Positions 48,246 to 60,906 of a stretch of DNA of 64,000 nt are shown in pieces. The stretch comes from Thermoanaerobaculia bacterium (GTDB taxonomy: Bacteria; Acidobacteriota; Thermoanaerobaculia; UBA5066): the NCBI GenBank assembly GCA_963719225.1, contig CAVRAY010000001.1:1056001-1120000 (forward strand). The letters run 5' to 3'. Positions within the stretch are counted from its first letter, which is position 1; every line of letters starts with the position of its first letter. The notes under the pieces are model-generated. The model searched no databases, was not told the DNA's origin, and was given only the letters and a program-made list of their open reading frames with translations. The position numbers and the translations under genes were made by a program.

Positions 48246-48274
48246 GATCGTTCCCTGCGCCGCCTAACGATATC

Positions 48275-48314
48275 GTTTCAATGAAGAGGAGAAAAGGGCT
48301 GTCCTCGCCGACGT
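48275..48314 (+). mobile_element. Isolated left end of IS-C (IS1111-like) joined to an attC R' half
   Basis: Near-identical to 49064-49103; follows GCCTAACGATATC. Confidence 0.6.
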
Positions 48315-48479
48315 CTCAGGACGGCACAGATCAACGCAGCGAAAAAGATGCTTCGGAGCGCGGGACTCTCGGAAGTCAGCCGCCAGTACCTCGGGACCCC
48401 TCGCGCCTGGCGTCGTGGCGCCGACGGCCTAGCCAAAGACCAAACTTCAGCGGAATTACCTTCCCTGAGAGTTGCGAGA

Positions 48480-49010
<531 letters not shown>

Positions 49011-49063
49011 GCGCTCTTCCTTTTCTTGCGCGCTGGAAGTGCTTCCTGTGTTCTAACGATATC

Positions 49064-49440
49064 GTTTCAATGAAGACGAGAAAAGGGCTGTCCTCGCCGA
49101 CGTGGTCACCGAAAAATCGGGCCACAAACTTTAACGGGGTCAGCCTCCGAGAAGGTGCCCCAAGCACGGGAGGACAGCCCGATGAAATCTTATGTGGAAC
49201 TGGACGTTCACAGCAAGTCGAGCGTATTCGTGATCCAGAACGAGCGGGAAGAGGAGCTGGGACGAGGTGAGGTGCCGACGTCTGTGGAGGGGTTCTCCTC
49301 GCTTCGGGGGCGTTTCAGGCTTCGCGCCTCGACGACCGTTCCAGGAGTGGGAGAGATCGTGGCGCTGACGGCAATCGCGGTCTTCTCTGACGCCACACGC
49401 TTTCCGAACGCCAAGCGTGCTTCCAGTTACGCAGGGTGTA
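49064..49440 (+). pseudogene. IS-C: internally deleted IS110/IS1111-family element remnant
   Basis: ATG 49182 MKSYVELDVHSKSS (N-terminal DEDD start) joined to TVPGVGEIVA...RFPNAKRASSYAG (C-terminal domain); IR GGGCTGTCCTC 49085-49095 with inverted copy 49170-49180 over the RBS. Confidence 0.75.
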
Positions 49441-50543: not shown

Positions 50544-50595
50544 CGGTTCTCCTCCTTCGTAGAATTTCAGCCGGAGTCGTCCAGAGAGGGACGGC

Positions 50596-50632
50596 GTCTA
50601 ACGATATCAAGCTCAGCGGCGAGCGAAGCGAG
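50596..50632 (-). other. attC half-site, interrupted
   Basis: GTCTAACGATATCAAGCTCAGCGGCGAGCGAAGCGAG followed by the IS3 end. Confidence 0.75.
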
Positions 50633-50635
50633 GGA

Positions 50636-51275
50636 TGTTGACCCGGTCTCGTTGACACGCTGTTAGGCGGCGTTTCGTTCGTAGTTGATCGGCGAAAGAT
50701 AACCCAGGGACGAGTGGAGGCGTTTTCCGTTGTAGCGGCGGACGTAGCGACATACGGCGAGGCTGAGCGAGCGATCGTCTTCGAAGGTGCGGCCGTGGAA
50801 GACGTCGGATTTCATCGAGTGGAAGAAGGACTCGATGAAGGCGTTGTCACAGATCTCTCGGGGGCGCTTCATGCTCTGCGTGATGCCGAGGGCAGCCAGG
50901 CGCGCGCGAAAGGCGTAGGCCGAGTACTCGACGCCGCGGTCGGAGTGAAAGATCAGGCCGGGTCGTGGCTGCTGGTGGCGAATCGCGCGATTGAGAGCCA
51001 TGCGGGTGAGAGTCAGGTCACGCCTGGAGCGAAGACTCCAGCCCAAGACTCGCCGGGAGTGGCGATCCAGCACGACGGCCAGGTAGCGCCAGCGGCCGGC
51101 GCTGCTGAGGTACGTCACGTCGCCGACCCAGATCTCTCCGGGCGCCTTCGTACTCAGGCCGAGTACGCGATTGGGGATCGCGGCATAGAAACGGCGGGTG
51201 CCCGGCGTGCGCCGGTAGAGGCGAGCCGAGCGCGCCTTAAGGGCCGCAGAGCGCATCAGGCGGGCCACTCTCGCC
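50636..51275 (-). pseudogene. Truncated IS3-family element (orfB rve domain plus one terminal IR)
   Basis: WVGDVTY, FHSDRGVEY, DNAFIESFF, YN.KRLHSSLGYLSP; TG-initiated end at 50636; orfA absent. Confidence 0.85.
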
Positions 51276-51526
51276 AGCGAGCCGCAACGCGGCATGAACG
51301 CGTGGGCTGCCATAGGTGCCCTCGCTCGCTTCGAAGACGGCGCGAATACGCCCGAGCAGCCGCTCGTCCTCTCGGGCTCGAGCACTCGGCTCGCGGCGGC
51401 GAAAGGAGTAGTACGGCTCTGTCGGGAGAGCCGATATTTAGGTATTCGTGCACGAGCCTGGCCGCTAACGAGCGTCATTACGATCTCGGTCCGGGGATGT
51501 TGGCTTTGGCCCTTCGGTGTTCGCCT

Positions 51527-51751: not shown

Positions 51752-51923
51752 GACGACGTGGAGGTTGACATTAATGCTTCGGGTCTCTCGTTCCGGGGGT
51801 CTAACGATATCAAGCTCAGCGGCGAGCGTAGCGAGATGGGATGAGAAGGCCGGTCTCCCCAACGCAGTCGGAGAATCCGCTGCAAGGGAAAAGCGGGCTC
51901 GAGGCCCAGAAGGGAGACCGGCC

Positions 51924-53018
51924 GTGAAGAAGCGTAGCACTGGGAACGGGGCCGAGGTGACGGGGGCGTGGACGCTGGGAATGGACTTGGGGGATCGGAC
52001 GAGTCACATCTGCGTGCTTGACGAGGGAGGGACGGTCGTCGAGCGGGGCAAGGTCCAGACGACGCAGGAAGGGATGCGGAAGCGGTTCGAAGGAGCGCCC
52101 CGAATGCGAGTTGCCATGGAGGTGGGGACACATTCGCCGTGGGTGAGCCGGCTTCTAAAAGGGTTTGGGCACGAGGTCCTGGTGGCCAACCCGCGAAAGA
52201 CGCGGCTGATCTACCAGAACCGCGGGAAGCAGGATCCTGTGGATGCCGAGGCGCTGGCGAGGATCGCGCGGCTGGACCCGAAGCTTCTCTATCCCGTGGC
52301 GCACCGGGCCGAGAGCGTCGCGCAGGATCTGGCCGTGGTTCGGGCGCGCGATGCGCTGGTGAGGACACGGTCGCTGCTCATCAATCACGTCCGCGGCGCG
52401 GTCAAGGCGACGGGCCACCGCGTCAAGAAATGCTCGACCCGGACGTTCTCGAAAAGAGCGGTGGGTGAAATCCCCGAGCAAGTGCGCGAGGCGTTGTCGA
52501 GTGTCGTGACGACCATCGAGGTCGTGTCGAAACAGATTCTCGTGCTGGACAAGCGAATCCGAGAGCTGGGGAAAGAGAAATACCCCGAGACAGCGTTGCT
52601 CAGGCAGGTAGGCGGAGTGGGCCCGATCGTGGCGCTGGCCTACATCCTGACGCTCGAGCATCCGGGTCGCTTCCTGAAGAGCCGGGCCGTGGGGCCCTGG
52701 CTCGGGCTTGTGCCGGCGCGAAGCCAGAGCGGAAACTCCGACCCGCAGCTGCGCATCACGAAGGAAGGAGACACCTTGCTGCGCCGGCTTCTTGTTCAGG
52801 CGGCGCAGTACATCCTCGGGCCATTCGGAGAGGACTGCGATCTCAGGCGATTCGGTCAGGCTCTTTCGGCCCGAGGGGAACGCAACGCCAAGAAACGAGC
52901 CGTCATCGCCGTCGCAAGAAAGCTGGCCGTGCTGCTGCATCGGCTGTGGAAGAGCGCAGAGGTCTATGAGCCGCTACGCAGGGCCGGAACGCTCCAGGAC
53001 GCGACCGTGGCGGCCTAA
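51924..53018 (+). CDS. IS110-family transposase/recombinase (IS-A)
   Basis: GMDLG, AMEVG, KQDPVDA (DEDD); GLVPARSQSG serine motif. Confidence 0.95.
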   Translation: MKKRSTGNGAEVTGAWTLGMDLGDRTSHICVLDEGGTVVERGKVQTTQEGMRKRFEGAPRMRVAMEVGTHSPWVSRLLKGFGHEVLVANPRKTRLIYQNRGKQDPVDAEALARIARLDPKLLYPVAHRAESVAQDLAVVRARDALVRTRSLLINHVRGAVKATGHRVKKCSTRTFSKRAVGEIPEQVREALSSVVTTIEVVSKQILVLDKRIRELGKEKYPETALLRQVGGVGPIVALAYILTLEHPGRFLKSRAVGPWLGLVPARSQSGNSDPQLRITKEGDTLLRRLLVQAAQYILGPFGEDCDLRRFGQALSARGERNAKKRAVIAVARKLAVLLHRLWKSAEVYEPLRRAGTLQDATVAA

Positions 53019-53094
53019 GAAATCAGCCAAGGGAAACAGCGAAAGGAAATAGCGAGAGGTCTCGATCAATCGTGGCCATCCCAATTCGAGCTAA

Positions 53095-53260
53095 CGCCCC
53101 GTCAGGGCGACTGCGCAGCGGACTCCGGTCCCCACGGGTTTCGGCCCGTGAAGGAAAACCGGCGCCGAGATTGCAGCGCCCCTACGGATTGGACCCCCTC
53201 ATGCACCGGGCCAAAAGAACATGGCCTACACGAGTGCGAATGGAAGCTCGGCGAACAACT
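53095..53260 (+). ncRNA. Putative bridge/seek RNA of IS-A copy 1 (boundaries approximate)
   Basis: Internal-loop hairpin carrying GCAGCGGACT (target match) and downstream ATGGAAG (donor match). Confidence 0.75.
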
Positions 53261-53354
53261 CGAACCCGGGGATTCCCAAAGGAGATCTCAGCCCTCTCTT
53301 GACTACGACCGGCCTTCTCATGGAAGTCCGCTGCAACGAGTTGTTGGGCGGCGA

Positions 53355-53624: not shown

Positions 53625-53839
53625 CGAGGCTTCGGGTCGAGATCCCGAGTGTTGCCCGAGCGATGCTCCGCGAGCGCCGCATCAGCGAGACGCTCGAGCG
53701 TGGAGCCGGAACGAGAGAAGGACTCGGCCCAACGCGCCTCATCCTCAAGCTCGGCCAGCAGCCACGAAGCTACTTCCTCCTGCTGGGGAGGAGGGAGCTT
53801 TGAGATTTCTGCGAGAGCCTTTTCGAGAAGCGCTGTCAT
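53621..53839 (-). CDS. Putative antitoxin (gene cassette)
   Basis: 72-aa MTALLEKALAEISKLP..QQEEVA.WLLAELEDEARW; 4-bp overlap with toxin. Confidence 0.75.
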   Translation of the reverse strand: MTALLEKALAEISKLPPPQQEEVASWLLAELEDEARWAESFSRSGSTLERLADAALAEHRSGNTRDLDPKPR

Positions 53840-54019
53840 GACTTTACCGCGGGAGATTCTACTCTCCCTGAGCCGCCTAACGATACCGAGTTCAGCGGCG
53901 AAGAGGAAGGAGCGAAGCGACTGACGATGAGATGGGATGAGAAGGCCGGTCTCCCCAACGCAGTCGGAGAATCCGCTGCAAGGGAAAAGCGGGCTCGAGG
54001 CCCAGAAGGGAGACCGGCC

Positions 54020-55114
54020 GTGAAGAAGCGTAGCACTGGGAACGGGGCCGAGGTGACGGGGGCGTGGACGCTGGGAATGGACTTGGGGGATCGGACGAGT
54101 CACATCTGCGTGCTTGACGAGGGAGGGACGGTCGTCGAGCGGGGCAAGGTCCAGACGACGCAGGAAGGGATGCGGAAGCGGTTCGAAGGAGCGCCCCGAA
54201 TGCGAGTTGCCATGGAGGTGGGGACACATTCGCCGTGGGTGAGCCGGCTTCTAAAAGGGTTTGGGCACGAGGTCCTGGTGGCCAACCCGCGAAAGACGCG
54301 GCTGATCTACCAGAACCGCGGGAAGCAGGATCCTGTGGATGCCGAGGCGCTGGCGAGGATCGCGCGGCTGGACCCGAAGCTTCTCTATCCCGTGGCGCAC
54401 CGGGCCGAGAGCGTCGCGCAGGATCTGGCCGTGGTTCGGGCGCGCGATGCGCTGGTGAGGACACGGTCGCTGCTCATCAATCACGTCCGCGGCGCGGTCA
54501 AGGCGACGGGCCACCGCGTCAAGAAATGCTCGACCCGGACGTTCTCGAAAAGAGCGGTGGGTGAAATCCCCGAGCAAGTGCGCGAGGCGTTGTCGAGTGT
54601 CGTGACGACCATCGAGGTCGTGTCGAAACAGATTCTCGTGCTGGACAAGCGAATCCGAGAGCTGGGGAAAGAGAAATACCCCGAGACAGCGTTGCTCAGG
54701 CAGGTAGGCGGAGTGGGCCCGATCGTGGCGCTGGCCTACATCCTGACGCTCGAGCATCCGGGTCGCTTCCTGAAGAGCCGGGCCGTGGGGCCCTGGCTCG
54801 GGCTTGTGCCGGCGCGAAGCCAGAGCGGAAACTCCGACCCGCAGCTGCGCATCACGAAGGAAGGAGACACCTTGCTGCGCCGGCTTCTTGTTCAGGCGGC
54901 GCAGTACATCCTCGGGCCATTCGGAGAGGACTGCGATCTCAGGCGATTCGGTCAGGCTCTTTCGGCCCGAGGGGAACGCAACGCCAAGAAACGAGCCGTC
55001 ATCGCCGTCGCAAGAAAGCTGGCCGTGCTGCTGCATCGGCTGTGGAAGAGCGCAGAGGTCTATGAGCCGCTACGCAGGGCCGGAACGCTCCAGGACGCGA
55101 CCGTGGCGGCCTAA
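54020..55114 (+). CDS. IS110-family transposase/recombinase (IS-A)
   Basis: Same translation as 51924-53018. Confidence 0.95.
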   Translation: MKKRSTGNGAEVTGAWTLGMDLGDRTSHICVLDEGGTVVERGKVQTTQEGMRKRFEGAPRMRVAMEVGTHSPWVSRLLKGFGHEVLVANPRKTRLIYQNRGKQDPVDAEALARIARLDPKLLYPVAHRAESVAQDLAVVRARDALVRTRSLLINHVRGAVKATGHRVKKCSTRTFSKRAVGEIPEQVREALSSVVTTIEVVSKQILVLDKRIRELGKEKYPETALLRQVGGVGPIVALAYILTLEHPGRFLKSRAVGPWLGLVPARSQSGNSDPQLRITKEGDTLLRRLLVQAAQYILGPFGEDCDLRRFGQALSARGERNAKKRAVIAVARKLAVLLHRLWKSAEVYEPLRRAGTLQDATVAA

Positions 55115-55190
55115 GAAATCAGCCAAGGGAAACAGCGAAAGGAAATAACGAGAGGTCTCGATCAATCGTGGCCATCCCAATTCGAGCTAA

Positions 55191-55356
55191 CGCCCCGTCA
55201 GGGCGACTGCGCAGCGGACTCCGGTCCCCACGGGTTTCGGCCCGTGAAGGAAAACCGGCGCCGAGATTGCAGCGCCCCTACGGATTGGACCCCCTCATGC
55301 ACCGGGCCAAAAGAACATGGCCTACACGAGTGCGAATGGAAGCTCGGCGAACAACT
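55191..55356 (+). ncRNA. Putative bridge/seek RNA of IS-A copy 2
   Basis: Same sequence as 53095-53260 (offset 2096). Confidence 0.75.
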
Positions 55357-55522
55357 CGAACCCGGGGATTCCCAAAGGAGATCTCAGCCCTCTCTTGACT
55401 ACGACCGGCCTTCTCATGGAAGTCCGCTGCAAGGATGGAGTGGACTCCTCCTTCATGACGTGAAACGGCATCTGTGTGCCAACGTCATCGAGTCGGAGAG
55501 TGAAGCCGAAAAGGAGGAGTCC

Positions 55523-56578
55523 ATGGAGAATCCTACGACGATCGCGATCGACCTGTCCAAGAGCGTTTTCGAGATCGCCGTCGAGCGCGGGGGGCGGATC
55601 TGCCAGAGGAAGCGGCTGAGCCGAGGGCAGATGATCACGTTTCTTTCGCAGTGCCCCAGGGCCACGATCCTCATGGAGACGTGTGGCACCTCGCACTACT
55701 GGGGCCGCAAGGCGCAGGAGCTCGGGCACGACGTGCGGCTGCTTCCGGCACAGCACGTCAGGCCGTACCGCATCGGCCAGAAGATCGACCGCAGGGACGC
55801 CGAAGCGATCCTGAGCGCGCGGCACCGAGAAACGATCGTCGCCGTGCCCGTCAAGACGGTCGAGCAGCAGACCATCTGCGCGCTTCACCGGGTGCGCGCG
55901 GCGCTGATGAAGACCCGGACCGCCCGGCTGAACACCGTGAGAGGTCTGCTGAGGGAATTCGGGGTTGTGATTGCCGAGGGAGCCGAGAGAGTCCAGCCGG
56001 CGCTTTTCGAAGCCCTCTCGCAGTCTTCCTCGCCCGTGCCCGAGCCCCTTCACGCGGCGCTCATGGCGATGATGGCCGAGGCCCGAGAGCTCGAGGAAAG
56101 AAGCGGGCAGGTCGAAAAGCAGCTGAAGGCCCTGGCCCGGACGGCTCCTCTCGTCGAGAGGCTCGAGACGATTCCGGGTGTAGGTCTCCTGAACGCCACG
56201 GCGTTTTCTGCGATGGTCGGAGACTTTCGGCGCTTCAAGTCGGGACGGAAGTTTGCGAGCTCGCTCGGGCTGACGCCGAAGGAAAGCTCGAGCGGAAAGA
56301 GAAGGTGGCTCGGGTCGATCAGCAAGGCCGGAGACCCGTACCTCAGGACGCTTTTGATCGGCGGGGCCCGCTCGATGCTGCTCTCGGCCCACCGCAGGAA
56401 AAGGCCGCATGACCTGCAGCGATGGGCGCTCGAGGTCGAGAACAGGCGCGGGCGAAACCGCGCCGCAGTCGCCGTCGCAAACAAGCTCGCCCGGATCATC
56501 TGGGCCGTCGCGACGCGGGGCGAGCCGTTCAAGGCCAGGTTCGCCGCTCAGAACCCTCCAGCAACCGCTTCTGCCTGA
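55523..56578 (+). CDS. IS110-family transposase/recombinase (IS-B)
   Basis: AIDLSK, LMETC, KIDRRDA (DEDD); GLTPKESSSG. Confidence 0.95.
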   Translation: MENPTTIAIDLSKSVFEIAVERGGRICQRKRLSRGQMITFLSQCPRATILMETCGTSHYWGRKAQELGHDVRLLPAQHVRPYRIGQKIDRRDAEAILSARHRETIVAVPVKTVEQQTICALHRVRAALMKTRTARLNTVRGLLREFGVVIAEGAERVQPALFEALSQSSSPVPEPLHAALMAMMAEARELEERSGQVEKQLKALARTAPLVERLETIPGVGLLNATAFSAMVGDFRRFKSGRKFASSLGLTPKESSSGKRRWLGSISKAGDPYLRTLLIGGARSMLLSAHRRKRPHDLQRWALEVENRRGRNRAAVAVANKLARIIWAVATRGEPFKARFAAQNPPATASA

Positions 56579-56654
56579 AACGAGAAAGTGGGAGAGAAAC
56601 CCGTCAGCCCTTCCCGCCGACGAACGCGAAAGATGCGACAGATGAGCTCGGTCC

Positions 56655-56795
56655 GACCGACACGGGGCAAAGCCGATAACACCTCTGGCTCCAAGAAGCC
56701 GTTGCACAACGATTGGCCCCCCGTGTGCGGATTTCATCCTGGCCCGGAGCCCACGAAGGCTCCAACAGAAGAGGCCGTAGATACGAGTGCCGTCG
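56655..56795 (+). ncRNA. Putative bridge/seek RNA of IS-B (boundaries approximate)
   Basis: Two internal-loop hairpins with target-like (TAACACCTC, GTTGCA) and donor-like (TTTCATCCT, AGATA) segments. Confidence 0.75.
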
Positions 56796-56976
56796 CGACC
56801 TTCTCCGCTCATCACCATCGATCGCGTTCCCACGCAGGAATCGCCCCCGACGACCCAGGATCGCCTGATTTCTTAGAAGGAGAAAAACCACAGACCGCCC
56901 GCACTTGATCCCAAGGAGGAGTCCAGATACGAGGGGTTAGGCCTCGTACGATGCGTGAATAATGGACGACCGAGGC

Positions 56977-57393
56977 TTAAGGAGCGACGGGCCTGAGCCT
57001 GCGCCAGATGAAGAGCGCAAAACTGGCAACCGCGACTGCGGGGACCAGAAGGGTAAGTAGGAAAGGCGGCATACGGTCCGCGCGGACGAGACTCAGTGTG
57101 AGCCGATACGCGAGGCCGGCCGAGACAAGGCCCATGAACGCGAACGCCGAGAAAAGCGTAGGACGGAGCAAGCGAACGGCCTGCGCGCTATGGAAAGTGC
57201 TGGCAGCGACAAGGATTAGCCCGCTAACCCCGAGGTAGAGCTTGGTGACGAGTTGAACCGTAGTGAAGGGAGGATGAGCGACGAAGAAGTCGATGGCGCC
57301 AAGGATGAGAAACGCGAGGCCCACGAGAAAGGCCCCGAGACGAAGATGGCTGGGTATCGACGACCCGGCAGAACTCCGTAGGGATGAGGTCAT
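56977..57393 (-). CDS. Hypothetical membrane protein (gene cassette 2)
   Basis: Four hydrophobic segments; bounded by GTTAGGCCTCG and CGAGGCCTAAC. Confidence 0.7.
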   Translation of the reverse strand: MTSSLRSSAGSSIPSHLRLGAFLVGLAFLILGAIDFFVAHPPFTTVQLVTKLYLGVSGLILVAASTFHSAQAVRLLRPTLFSAFAFMGLVSAGLAYRLTLSLVRADRMPPFLLTLLVPAVAVASFALFIWRRLRPVAP

Positions 57394-57409
57394 GCGATTT
57401 CCTTTCGAG

Positions 57410-57489
57410 GCCTAACGATATCGAGTTCAGCGGCGAAGAGGAAGGAGCGAAGCGACTGACGATGAGTCCGCTGCAATGAGTTGTTCGGC
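57410..57489 (-). other. attC site, intact, 80 bp (cassette 1)
   Basis: Minus strand GCCGAAC-AACTC-ATTGCAGC...GCTGAAC-TCGATATC-GTTAGGC. Confidence 0.92.
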
Positions 57490-57495
57490 GGCGGC

Positions 57496-57951
57496 CTACG
57501 GCCACTTGAAGAAGCTGAAGACGGCCGCAGCGCCTTGAGCCTCCGTGACGAGTTGAAAACCGTGGCTTAGCAGCTGGCACGGGCCGTTTGAGGAAGGTGA
57601 CAGGCCTTGCCCCATGACCCCGAATTGGACCGGGATACCGGCCTCCTTTGCATTGCTGAGGGTGCGGAGAGCTTTCGCGTGCTGCTCTGGTGTGCTTGGC
57701 GTACCGGTAGAGCGCCACCAGTGCGAGCGCCGATAAGAGACGCTGACGGTTACCTCGGTGCATGAGCCCGGCAGGATGGCAGGATCGTGAGCGAGGGGCA
57801 GGAGCCGAATGACTTGGTGTTCGCGAGACGAGACGTCGACTGCTACGACGCGAACGGGGAGGCTTGCGCCGCCCGCCAACACGCCCCGAGCGGCACCGAG
57901 GCCAGCGGCTAGCGCGAGGAGCGGACAGAGGAGCCGGCGAAGGGTGACCAT
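57496..57951 (-). CDS. Hypothetical exported protein (gene cassette 1)
   Basis: Signal peptide; ORF fills the interval between attI and first attC. Confidence 0.7.
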   Translation of the reverse strand: MVTLRRLLCPLLALAAGLGAARGVLAGGASLPVRVVAVDVSSREHQVIRLLPLAHDPAILPGSCTEVTVSVSYRRSHWWRSTGTPSTPEQHAKALRTLSNAKEAGIPVQFGVMGQGLSPSSNGPCQLLSHGFQLVTEAQGAAAVFSFFKWP

Positions 57952-57962
57952 GAGATTTAGCC

Positions 57963-57981
57963 GCCGAACTAGTATTAGACG
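57963..57981 (-). other. Putative attI core (crossover G57969/T57968)
   Basis: Minus strand CGTCTAATACTA-GTTCGGC; GTTCGGCGG complements R'' of first attC; no attC arm upstream. Confidence 0.7.
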
Positions 57982-58000
57982 TCTGGTGGGGTGGGTACAT

Positions 58001-58549
58001 CTAGGAACTTCTGCCCGAATTGTGGCCCAGGTTCCTATTAGTAGTCACCTGGCGGTGAGCATATCTAGGAACCGCAGGGCGGGTGGGGTCGGGGTGGCGG
58101 GAGGGGGTTTCGAGGGTCCCGGGGGTTCCGGGGGTTCCGGGGGTCCCGAGGGGCCCGTGAGTCCCGAGGGGGGTTCGAGTTGGCGCCACGATCCGGCTCC
58201 TCAGCCTGAGCCTCTCGGCGACGTCGTACCGCGTCCGCCAGAGCATCCTTTCCCTGTCCCACCACGCCCTCGCGTCGCGGAGCCGCTGAATCGCCTTCCA
58301 GTCGTTCGGGTCGATCCTGAGGTAGACCAGCGCACCCGGCGTCGGGCGCCTTGGCGGGTTCCAGGGCCGCAGCTCCGAGGTCACGATCTCGACGGTCGTG
58401 TATCGGATCCGCTCTTTTGCGTCGAACCGGTACCTTACGGATACGAGCCGTTCGCCCCAGTCCCGGACGAACCGGGCTGTACCTTTCTCGCCCGGTCGCA
58501 TCGTCTTGCGGACGACTCCCTGCATGGCGCCGTTCGCGTGCGTAATCAC
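58001..58549 (-). CDS. Hypothetical basic protein between intI and attI (orfX)
   Basis: RPGEKGT.RF...WGERLVSVRYRFD...RYTTVEIV; GTGA overlap with upstream stop (alternative ATG 58525). Confidence 0.7.
   Translation of the reverse strand: MITHANGAMQGVVRKTMRPGEKGTARFVRDWGERLVSVRYRFDAKERIRYTTVEIVTSELRPWNPPRRPTPGALVYLRIDPNDWKAIQRLRDARAWWDRERMLWRTRYDVAERLRLRSRIVAPTRTPLGTHGPLGTPGTPGTPGTLETPSRHPDPTRPAVPRYAHRQVTTNRNLGHNSGRSS
58104..58178. repeat. Imperfect 9-bp tandem repeat encoding (GTP)n in orfX
   Basis: GGGTTTCGA GGGTCCCGG GGGTTCCGG GGGTTCCGG GGGTCCCGA... Confidence 0.7.
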
Positions 58550-59040
58550 GGCGCCTTCTTCTCCGGCCGCGCGAGGATCCCGATCCGGCGTCCGGCGTCG
58601 GAGTCGGCGATCAGCTGCGCGAGGCGACGCGCGCGGGTCTCGGGCTTCTTCGCGCTCGCGACCCAGAACGTCGAGACTCTCGTGTAGCCCGGCGGCTGGG
58701 CCTGGAAGAACCGCCACGCGCCCCGGTGTGCCCGGAACGTCCGCGCCGCCTCGCGGTCGAACGTCAGGGTGCTCCTCTGCTCGAAGGAGTAGACGCCCGT
58801 GCGCTTCGCCTCGATGTACCAGCGGCCTGAGTCGAGGCTGCGCCTGACGCCGTCGATCCACCCGAAGCAGAGCGCCTCGTCCAGCGCCTCGAAGTACGTG
58901 AGGCTCGTGCGCCCGGGCGCCTTCTTGAGGAACCCGACGAGGAGCTCGGTCACCTTCGCGTGGTTCTTCTGGAGCCAGCGGCGGAAGGCGGGGGCATCGT
59001 CGAAGAAGATCGGAGGCGGTGAGCGAGGTGCGTCTCTCAC
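58546..59040 (-). CDS. YdeI/OmpD-associated family protein (possibly internally deleted)
   Basis: FRRWLQKNH...[13 protein letters not shown]...FF.AQPPGY...[13 protein letters not shown]. Confidence 0.8.
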
Positions 59041-59990
59041 GGCCCGTCCAGCGGGCTCCTGACGCCGCGGCCTCCGGAGTTGAGAACGTGGGTGTAGATC
59101 ATCGTCGTCGCGACGTCGCGGTGGCCGAGGAGCTCCTGGATGGTGCGGATGTCGTAGCCGCTCTCGAGAAGGTGGGTCGCGAAGCTGTGGCGCAGGGTGT
59201 GGCAGGTCGCGAGCCTCGTGATGCCGGCGTCCGCGACGGCCCTCTGGACGGCCCGCTGGACGACGGATTCGGGGAGGTGGTGACGGCGGATTTCACCGCT
59301 CCGCGGGTCGACGCTCTCGCGCCCCGCGGGGAAGACGTACTGCCACGGCCAGCTCTTTGCGGCGCCGGGGTACTTGATGCGAATGGCGTCGGGAAGGTGG
59401 ACGTCGCCGCCGCCGCGCGCGCGGTCCGCGTCGTGCCGGGCGCGGACCTCCTCGAGATGCGCCGCGAGGTCCGGCCTGAGAACGGCGGAAAGCATCGTGA
59501 CGCGGTCCTTCTGGCCCTTGCCGTCGCGGACGAGGATCTCGTTGCGGGAGAGGTCGAGATCCTTGACGCGCAGGCGCAGCGCTTCCATGAGCCTGAGTCC
59601 GGAGCCGTAGAGAAGGGTCGCGACGAGGCGCGGCTCGCCGCGGAGGCGGGCGAGGATCCGGCGGACCTCCTCGCGCGTGAGGACGACGGGAAGGCGTGCC
59701 GGACGCCGGGCGCGGATGAGAGTCGACATCTCGGGGAACGGCTTGTCGAGGACGTTGCGATAGAGGAAGAGAAGCGCCGAGAGCGCCTGGTTCTGGGTGG
59801 AGGCCGCGACGCGGCCCTGCGTCGCGAGGGAGGAGAGAAAGGCGCCGATCTCGGCTTCGCCCATCTCGTCGGGATGGCGTTTGTCGTGAAAGACGACGAA
59901 CCGCCGGATCCATCCGACGTAGGCTTCCTCGGTCCGGAGGCTGTAATGGCGCGTGCGGAGCGCGGCACGCACGCGTTCGAGGAGCTTCAT
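59037..59990 (-). CDS. intI: Integron integrase
   Basis: [25 protein letters not shown], integron-specific [10 protein letters not shown]...[24 protein letters not shown]...TTMIYTHV. Confidence 0.97.
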
Positions 59991-60006
59991 GTTTCCTGCC
60001 GCGCAA

Positions 60007-60035
60007 AAGGTAGATCCGCGGTGCTCGCAAGTCAA
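60007..60035 (-). promoter_or_regulatory. Putative intI promoter
   Basis: TTGACT-N17-TACCTT on minus strand. Confidence 0.6.
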
Positions 60036-60117
60036 GCGTAAGTTTAGGCCTAGAATGAGCCACGATTCATTTTTTCCATGACGCGCCTCGAAAGGCATGC
60101 TACGTTCCCGGGTTGCC

Positions 60118-60906
60118 ATGAATCAGATCGTCTGCATCGCCTACGTCCCCGACACGGAAACCAGGATCCGCATCGCCCCGGGCGGCGTCTCGATCGACGA
60201 AGCCGACGTGAAGTGGATCGTGTCCCCCTACGACGAGTACGCGCTCGAGGGCGCGCTCAAGACGAAGGAAGCGAAAGGCGGGACCGTCACGGCCCTGACG
60301 TTCGGCCCCGCGCGCGCCGACACGGGCCTGCGCGAGAGCCTCGCCCGCGGCGCCGACGACGCGATCCGCATCGCGTCCGAGGGCCTCGGCGACGTGGATT
60401 CGCTCGGCGTGGCGCGCCTCCTCGCCGGCGTCATCGAGACCCTGCCCTACGACGTCGTGTGGATGGGCAACAAGGGCGTCGGCACGGACGCGCAGCTCCT
60501 CGTGCCCATGCTCGCCGAGCTCCTCGACCTGCCGCACGTGAATCTCGTGACGCAGCTCGAGTGGAAGGACGGCACGGTCGTCGCGCACCGCGAGATCGAG
60601 GGCGCGCAGGAAGTCGTCGAGATGCCGCTTCCCGGCATCATCGGTGCCACGAAGGGGCTGAACGAGCCGCGCTACGCGTCGCTGAAGGGGATCATGGCCG
60701 CGAAGAAGAAGGCGATCGCCGTGAAGACGCCCGCCGACGCCGGCGTCGATCCGGCGTCGATCTCCGGAGACGCCGTGCACGTGCGCTGGACGAAGCTCGA
60801 GCTGCCGCCCCCGCGGCAGGCCGTGAAGCTCGTCCCGGCGGATGACCCGGCGAAGGCCGCGACGGAGCTGCTGCGGCTGCTGCGGGAAGAGGCGAAGGTC
60901 CTTTGA
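60118..60906 (+). CDS. etfB: Electron transfer flavoprotein beta subunit
   Basis: [40 protein letters not shown]. Confidence 0.93.

Follow-up and report, generated by a model that had tools for sequence, protein, structure and literature searches.

Integron setting of the locus

Within the window analysed here, a 64,000-nt stretch of a Thermoanaerobaculia chromosome, two elements of the IS110 superfamily, IS-A and IS-B, interrupt a single integron attC site and divide it into three parts. The cassette array lies on the minus strand and both elements on the plus strand. IS-B (55433..56929) is a complete IS1111-type insertion sequence of 1497 bp, the ends of which were defined from five genome copies and from empty attC sites, while IS-A (53930..55420), a distant IS1111-type element, has a second copy at 51834-53324. 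The right flank of IS-B (56930..56942, minus strand) was assigned by sequence to the R'' core, the spacer and the first base of L''. The rest of L'', a 12-bp piece predicted to be read by the guides of both elements, lies between IS-A and IS-B (55421..55432, minus strand), and the remaining part with the L' and R' side (53875..53929, minus strand) matches an empty attC at 57410-57490. An integron integrase gene was identified at 59037-60119 (TIGR02249, 467 bits). Since single-strand folds of three empty attC sites were no better than those of shuffled sequences (z of 0.98, -0.56 and -0.60), the identity of the attC sites rests on the repeated cores found after genes and on the integrase, not on folding.

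The integrase gene reads towards the cassette array on the cassette strand, an inverted arrangement. Small open reading frames, one of them (58546-59040) with a YdeI/OmpD-associated domain, are located between it and the likely attI (near 57960-57990). The second array of this genome (C1:2196770-2210600) carries four IS-B copies; the part of it that was examined contains no recognisable integrase gene, and the attI-like end is followed by a transposase gene. A solitary attC was found at C1:291383. The attC at 50595-50670 is interrupted near the IS-A insertion point by a remnant of about 30 bp with inverted-repeat-like ends and is adjoined by an IS3-type integrase-core fragment (50663-51478). 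The attC starts at 48255-48320 and 49050-49110 are both cut and followed by the same sequence of about 45 bp, which may be one end of a further element that targets attC. An IS110-like fragment comes next, at about 49180-49430. An unrelated, frameshifted third member of the IS110 family is present at C1:1316500-1318000.

Structure and insertion sites of IS-B

The left end of IS-B (55433..55453) is composed of a 7-nt extension, one mismatched outer base and a 13-bp subterminal inverted repeat (55441-55453). An internal copy of the repeat (55511..55523, plus strand) overlaps the putative ribosome-binding site and the start codon, as judged from the sequence. The gene (55523..56578, plus strand) encodes a DEDD transposase/recombinase of 351 aa, in which PF01548 and PF02371 were detected above their cut-offs, and which scored 292.7 bits against NF033542 (cut-off 140); DEDD proteins of the IS1111 family (IS110-type) measure about 330-350 aa. 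The stop codon is separated from the right repeat by 334 bp of non-coding DNA, located downstream of the gene as in the IS1111 family. The right end (56905..56929) consists of a predicted -35 hexamer TTGATC (56905-10), the inverted repeat (56913-25) and terminal GATA. The repeat is perfect over its 13 bp (range for the family, 11-13 bp), and the 7+3 rule for end extensions holds if the mismatched outer pair is counted into the repeat, as in ISPa25 and ISKpn4.

Four further copies, one of them 5'-truncated, were located elsewhere in the 4.75-Mb genome, in the second cassette array (C1:2.199-2.210 Mb). All five copies are inserted in attC sites, near the 5' end of attC and antisense to the cassette genes, with each right end abutting the R'' arm. 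Six nucleotides separate the insertion from the GTT of R'' in four of the five, the spacer of the remaining copy being 2 nt shorter. The sequence-only reading had counted the A (55432) of AGGATGGAG as an element base. Among the four copies which keep the left end, the base before GGATG at the left junction is A in two and G in two, and therefore it is a target base and the insertion left no duplication. The idea that a single A of the core had been duplicated was thus ruled out, and IS-B starts at 55433. No target duplication was found, and the rejoined flanks match empty attC sites. The closest relatives of IS-B are from Acidobacteriota.

Predicted guide RNA

Based on an alignment of 50 relatives, a consensus fold and a covariance model, the core of a predicted bridge RNA (long seekRNA) with two hairpins and internal loops was placed at 56644..56797 on the plus strand. 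The target-binding hairpin (56660..56726) has an outer stem (ACACGGGG, 56660-67, with CCCCGTGT, 56719-26), a middle stem (GCCGA, 56672-76, with TTGGC, 56713-17) and an apical stem (56686-90 with 56697-701, including GGCT, 56687-90, and AGCC, 56697-700), all on the plus strand. The second hairpin is closed by GGCC (56741-44) and GGCC (56773-76). The stems and motifs that had been proposed from the sequence were each found at their coordinates. The target hairpin was recovered by folding the single sequence (z -2.46; equalled in 3 of 200 shuffles). Compensatory changes were observed in 12 of the 27 consensus pairs, including seven of seven in the outer target stem, with a mis-registered fifth helix lowering the whole-structure figures. 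No compensatory support for the GGCC/GGCC stem, which is nearly invariant, was found among the relatives.

A scan of 53800-58200 against Rfam gave no match at E values up to 1. In sequencing runs the best share of IS-B words was 0.13, and one RNA run held a contig from a related element covering 56548-56737, which is uninformative on strand, ends and transcription. By analogy with the published relatives, the RNA would be made, bound by the transposase and needed for movement.

Target guides

The right target guide TAACACCTC (56677..56685, plus strand) is predicted to pair with target positions +2 to +10, that is, with the attC spacer and the GTTA of R''. The match of eight out of nine to the minus-strand target, noticed earlier, is present at the window copy, and the other four copies gave 9, 9, 8 and 6 of 9. 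Fifteen attC-like sites without IS-B gave scores of 7 at twelve and of 8, 6 and 5 at one each. There is a tendency, but no clean separation, of occupied from empty sites by this score: a 6/9 site is occupied by one copy, and one empty site reaches 8/9.

The left target guide (56701..56711, plus strand) was resolved as GTTG, a CA bulge and CAA (guide proper, 56701-56709), predicted to read L'' from -7 to -1, followed by CG matching +1 and +2. Of the earlier description of this guide as GTTGCA (56701-56706), the sequence and the position stand, but the contiguous register does not; its fit at the window copy is due to a bulge that is CA by coincidence, and of the 22 guides with a length of at least 9 nt only 6 conform to it, the bulge being CA in every one of these six. 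The guide is anchored at its 3' end, where positions -3, -2 and -1 match in 66, 69 and 60 of 71 elements (expected 33, 48 and 28), and in its 5' block -5 and -4 match in 62 and 58 of 67 (expected 47 and 34). For guides longer than 7 nt, contiguous registers were rejected, as a bulge after the fourth base gave 6.19 of 7 against 4.13-4.72 (n=54), the bulge position having been chosen on the same data. A 9-nt identity between the RNA and the right junction (AGATACGAG) was also considered as an extended guide and discarded, since the CG that follows the donor guide does not change in elements whose target begins with GG.

Two anchors, TAAC and TGCA, had been proposed as conserved. TAAC is indeed shared with the known IS1111-attC elements; these read TGAA in place of TGCA, and the co-varying block is instead the last three bases before the junction.

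Taken singly, the four guide matches at the IS-B locus were reached at some position in 85, 1347, 832 and 264 of 2000 shuffles of the non-coding region, whereas all four jointly were reached in one of 2000. The strong case for the guides is comparative and does not lie in matches at a single locus.

Covariation of guides with flanks

A total of 122 loci were screened, of which 94 had an inverted-repeat pair. Two spurious calls, one unalignable outgroup, two unparsed loci and 16 loci that were duplicates or had missing or rearranged flanks were removed, leaving 73 elements; the ISPa25 locus is outside this shuffle set and is included in the per-position guide and donor counts. For the shuffle test one element was drawn from each of 24 clusters at 70% identity, in 20 draws, a procedure which reduces kinship and does not remove it. 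Left guides matched their own flanks at 2.79 of 3 positions (1.41 when shuffled), right guides at 7.36 of 9 (5.09 when shuffled, best of three registers) and donor guides matched their own ends at 6.97 (6.36 when shuffled). Shuffled pairings were as good as the own pairings in at most 1 of 1000 trials, and the picture was unchanged with 56 clusters at 90% identity.

It had been reasoned that the guides would be refuted by homologues with different flanks and the same loop sequence. Twelve elements have right flanks that are not attC-like by pattern, although one is really an attC variant and one is apparently rearranged. Their own left guide matched at all three positions in ten of the twelve, the left guide of IS-B in one, and their own right guide outperformed that of IS-B in nine and tied in three. 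The loops had been rewritten to the flanks of each element, which favours the guides. The covariation of guides with flanks and with ends thus upholds the proposal that the loops serve as guides for attC R''/spacer/L'' and for the element's own circle junction. That the matches are due to chance, with the protein selecting attC by its hairpin or sequence, would agree with every single match being common in shuffles. It is contradicted by the covariation; the rewriting of loops to non-attC flanks among close relatives and the folds of the three empty attC sites, no better than those of shuffles, also stand against it, and it is considered extremely improbable.

Two close relatives of attC-targeting elements, L101 (G260:C71) and L032, have near-identical right guides with different left guides and targets; the left flank of L101 looks tRNA-like. 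At two other loci (L114 and L123) a second copy of the right end follows the right end of the element.

Donor guides and circle junction

The right donor guide TTTCATCCT (56732..56740, plus strand) is predicted to pair with the last right-end base and the left end as joined in the circle. Among 42 donor sets, this guide matches left-end position 1 in 27 and position 6 in 32 (expected 17 and 17). GGATGAAG, the left end in three sibling copies, fits the donor guide better than GGATGGAG of the window copy. The pairing of this loop with AGGATGGAG had been proposed with A as a left-end base. The latter assignment fails; in the circle the A comes from the right end, and so the pairing itself still holds. 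The left donor guide AGATA (56779..56783, plus strand) is identical to the five terminal bases of the right end, as had been seen earlier. This identity is kept in 41 of 42 donor sets, with AGATA, ATATA and ATATG variants tracking the right end (ISKpn4, ATATG in both).

Joining of the ends would complete the -10 box of a predicted circle-junction promoter (TTGATC, 17-bp spacing, TAGGAT). Among 84 elements the -10 shape is generally present, while a -35 TTG at such spacing occurs in only 26. The end-to-end joint was absent from the contigs of four sequencing runs, which hold only relatives of IS-B.

The signal of covariation is weaker for the donor loop than for the target loop, and it is modest because the ends vary little. 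An alternative which concerns just the donor half of the mechanism is that only the target loop guides, as in a short seekRNA, the match of the second loop being a by-product and the protein using the inverted repeats to recognise the ends. An 82-nt seekRNA of ISEc11 alone supported movement, according to the accessible text of PMC11187229; moreover, the junction -10 box restricts the sequence of the ends and the first left-end position pairs in no more than the 27 sets given above. Against this stand the near-complete identity of the left donor guide with the right end through three variants and the change of the right donor guide with left-end position 6, so that a purely target-reading RNA is regarded as unlikely.

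Relationship to known IS1111-attC elements

The best match to IS-B among annotated plasmids was ISPa25 (47.5%), followed by ISPpu24, ISPa62 and ISPa21 at about 42%, mixed with unnamed IS110 matches. The insertion point is that of ISKpn4, ISPa25, ISPpu24 and ISPa62, and the register was kept in six of seven loci of plasmid elements from the known group, the seventh being rearranged. It also corresponds to the targets AA*CG of ISKpn4 and AG*CG of ISPa25, six bases before GTTAG, in the portion of PMC13604230 that includes Table 1.

In the accessible text of Siddiquee et al. (2024, PMC11187229), ISKpn4 and ISPst6 target attC, RNAs from their downstream region co-purify with the transposases, and ISPa25 has guide matches like those of both. 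The scaffold words around TAAC in Supplementary Table 1 of that paper, as far as available, are the same as in IS-B; no role is assigned to the second loop in the text accessible. In the part of PMC3001079 that was available the IS1111-attC subgroup is described as monophyletic, citing Tetu and Holmes (2008). The accessible portions of PMC13626964, PMC12444791 and bioRxiv 2025.10.25.684509 hold nothing bearing on attC targeting.

IS-B resembles ISKpn4, ISPst6, ISPa25, ISPa21, ISPpu24 and ISPa62 in the downstream non-coding region with a homologous RNA scaffold. It further shares with the known group the attC insertion point and orientation, the 7+3 end rule, the lack of a duplication, the order of a top-strand guide before a bottom-strand guide and a right guide starting with TAAC. 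It differs in a transposase only 40-47% identical, in guides which fit other spacer and L'' letters, in a left guide of 9 nt with a 2-nt bulge instead of 7 contiguous nt, and in its host, an acidobacterium with chromosomal arrays.

A covariance model built from the 50 relatives, with the known elements left out, gave 92 bits for ISPa25, 72-76 for six loci of the ISKpn4 group and 24-55 for twelve other IS1111 loci. As the scaffold is common, more weakly, to all IS1111 outgroups, RNA homology alone is no proof of shared targeting. A 42-row tree joined the IS-B clade with ISPa25 and the ISKpn4 group at 97/94, and an 81-row quick tree did so with an SH-aLRT of 98. In an AU test, forcing the IS-B clade among non-attC outgroups cost 5.8 log units and was not rejected (p-AU 0.06), so that separate origins are compatible with the protein data taken by themselves. 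When ranked by BLAST bit score, the ISKpn4 group came after four non-attC outgroups, and only ISPa25 was clearly closest.

The sequence-only reading had taken IS-B for a new lineage which evolved attC targeting independently, to be checked by phylogeny against the known elements. The free tree joins it with them; together with the best match to ISPa25, the common insertion point and the RNA ranking, this does not bear out a new lineage, although the separating tree is not rejected. An independent gain with real guides, converging on the insertion point of ISKpn4 and ISPa25, could draw on the p-AU value, the identity of only 40-47% and the ease with which guides are rewritten, several switches away from attC having taken place inside the IS-B clade. 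It would have to account for an identical insertion point, an identical TAAC at the same loop position, inverted repeats near-identical to those of ISPa25, the RNA-model ranking and the 97/94 support, and a single gain with later losses is simpler; such a gain is judged distinctly improbable. Based upon the insertion point, the ranking and the tree, the TAAC common to IS-B and the known group was most likely inherited. The region 56644-56797 is thus very probably the bridge/seekRNA of an IS1111-family element with guides matching the local attC, likely within the known IS1111-attC group (ISKpn4, ISPst6, ISPa21, ISPa25).

IS-A and convergence on attC

IS-A is like IS-B in its IS1111-type ends, its downstream guide RNA, the attC arm used and its orientation. 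The identity between the two is 27.9%, and the insertion point of IS-A lies 12 bp from that of IS-B, which is the known IS1111-attC point. IS-A differs in having an RNA in which the IS-B covariance model found no match and an AG core that is shared. Its more distant relatives, those under about 60% identity, occupy non-attC sites, where they target other repeats. The guide pair of IS-B was confirmed to be different from the guides of IS-A. No close plasmid relative of IS-A was found (best, 34%; nearest named plasmid match ISGdi15, 30.8%).

Thirty loci of IS-A relatives were examined, 25 of which had usable ends. The eight at 64-100% identity all have the right flank AGTCCGCTG of the attC arm, while the 17 at 47-59% identity occupy non-attC sites with guides mostly matching their own flanks, as read by eye. 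A single clade of all attC-targeting elements was rejected (p-AU 1.4e-50), which indicates that IS-A and IS-B reached attC separately. By this phylogenetic evidence the convergence on attC is real. The proposed independent targeting by a second lineage therefore stands as regards separate arrival, not as regards IS-B being the newcomer; the lineage with a separate origin of attC targeting is most likely IS-A. In 4 of 89 parsed loci, the window locus included, an IS-B-type target has an IS-A-type right end immediately on its left. In a literature collection with few subscription journals, no paper on an IS-A-like attC lineage was found, which does not establish its novelty.

Proposed mechanism

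The anatomy of IS-B, its use of sites, the covariation of guides with flanks and ends, and the RNA homology are shown by the present analysis, while transcription, protein binding, circle formation and catalysis would follow from the published relatives. Bridge RNAs that include donor-binding bases are predicted for 93% of IS1111 elements in the accessible text of Durrant et al. (2024, PMC11208160). The RNA of IS-B resembles the bridge RNAs of the IS110 family (IS621) in having a target loop and a donor-junction loop, each predicted to read both strands. Unlike IS621, it lies downstream of the gene, its guide order is reversed and donor and target do not share an identical 2-bp core. Immediately after the junction the donor of IS-B has G where the target has C or T, and the two agree only in the G that follows.

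In the proposed scheme, the ends of IS-B would be joined in an excised circle, creating the junction promoter for transposase and RNA. The first loop would open the target: TAACACCTC would pair with the strand which carries the spacer and R'', and GTTG-(bulge)-CAA with the other strand, along L''. The second loop would read the circle junction. The exchange would take place between the seventh and eighth base of L'' (plus-strand reading), placing the element opposite to the cassette genes with no duplication.

Significance

RNA-guided targeting of attC by the IS1111-attC group has already been published (2024), and IS-B itself adds little to it. What it contributes is a large environmental clade related to ISPa25 and ISKpn4 with natural reprogramming away from attC, the bulged left guide, and comparative support for the second loop of IS1111 long seekRNAs reading the circle junction. 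IS-A and IS-B together are a ready pair for tests of convergence and orthogonality.

The reading towards which the balance tips, if only slightly, is that two unrelated lineages of RNA-guided recombinases converged on one attC arm, at points separated by 12 bp, and can lie stacked in one site with the target of each left intact. IS-B would have come to it by inheritance from the known group, and IS-A by rewriting guides which had formerly read other repeats, and the IS-B clade would have a split left guide (0-3-nt bulge) and an exchange which proceeds without an identical first core base. If this is true, the split guide and the dispensable identity of the first core base would broaden the rules by which IS1111 bridge RNAs can be designed, and IS-A and IS-B would be a natural orthogonal pair.
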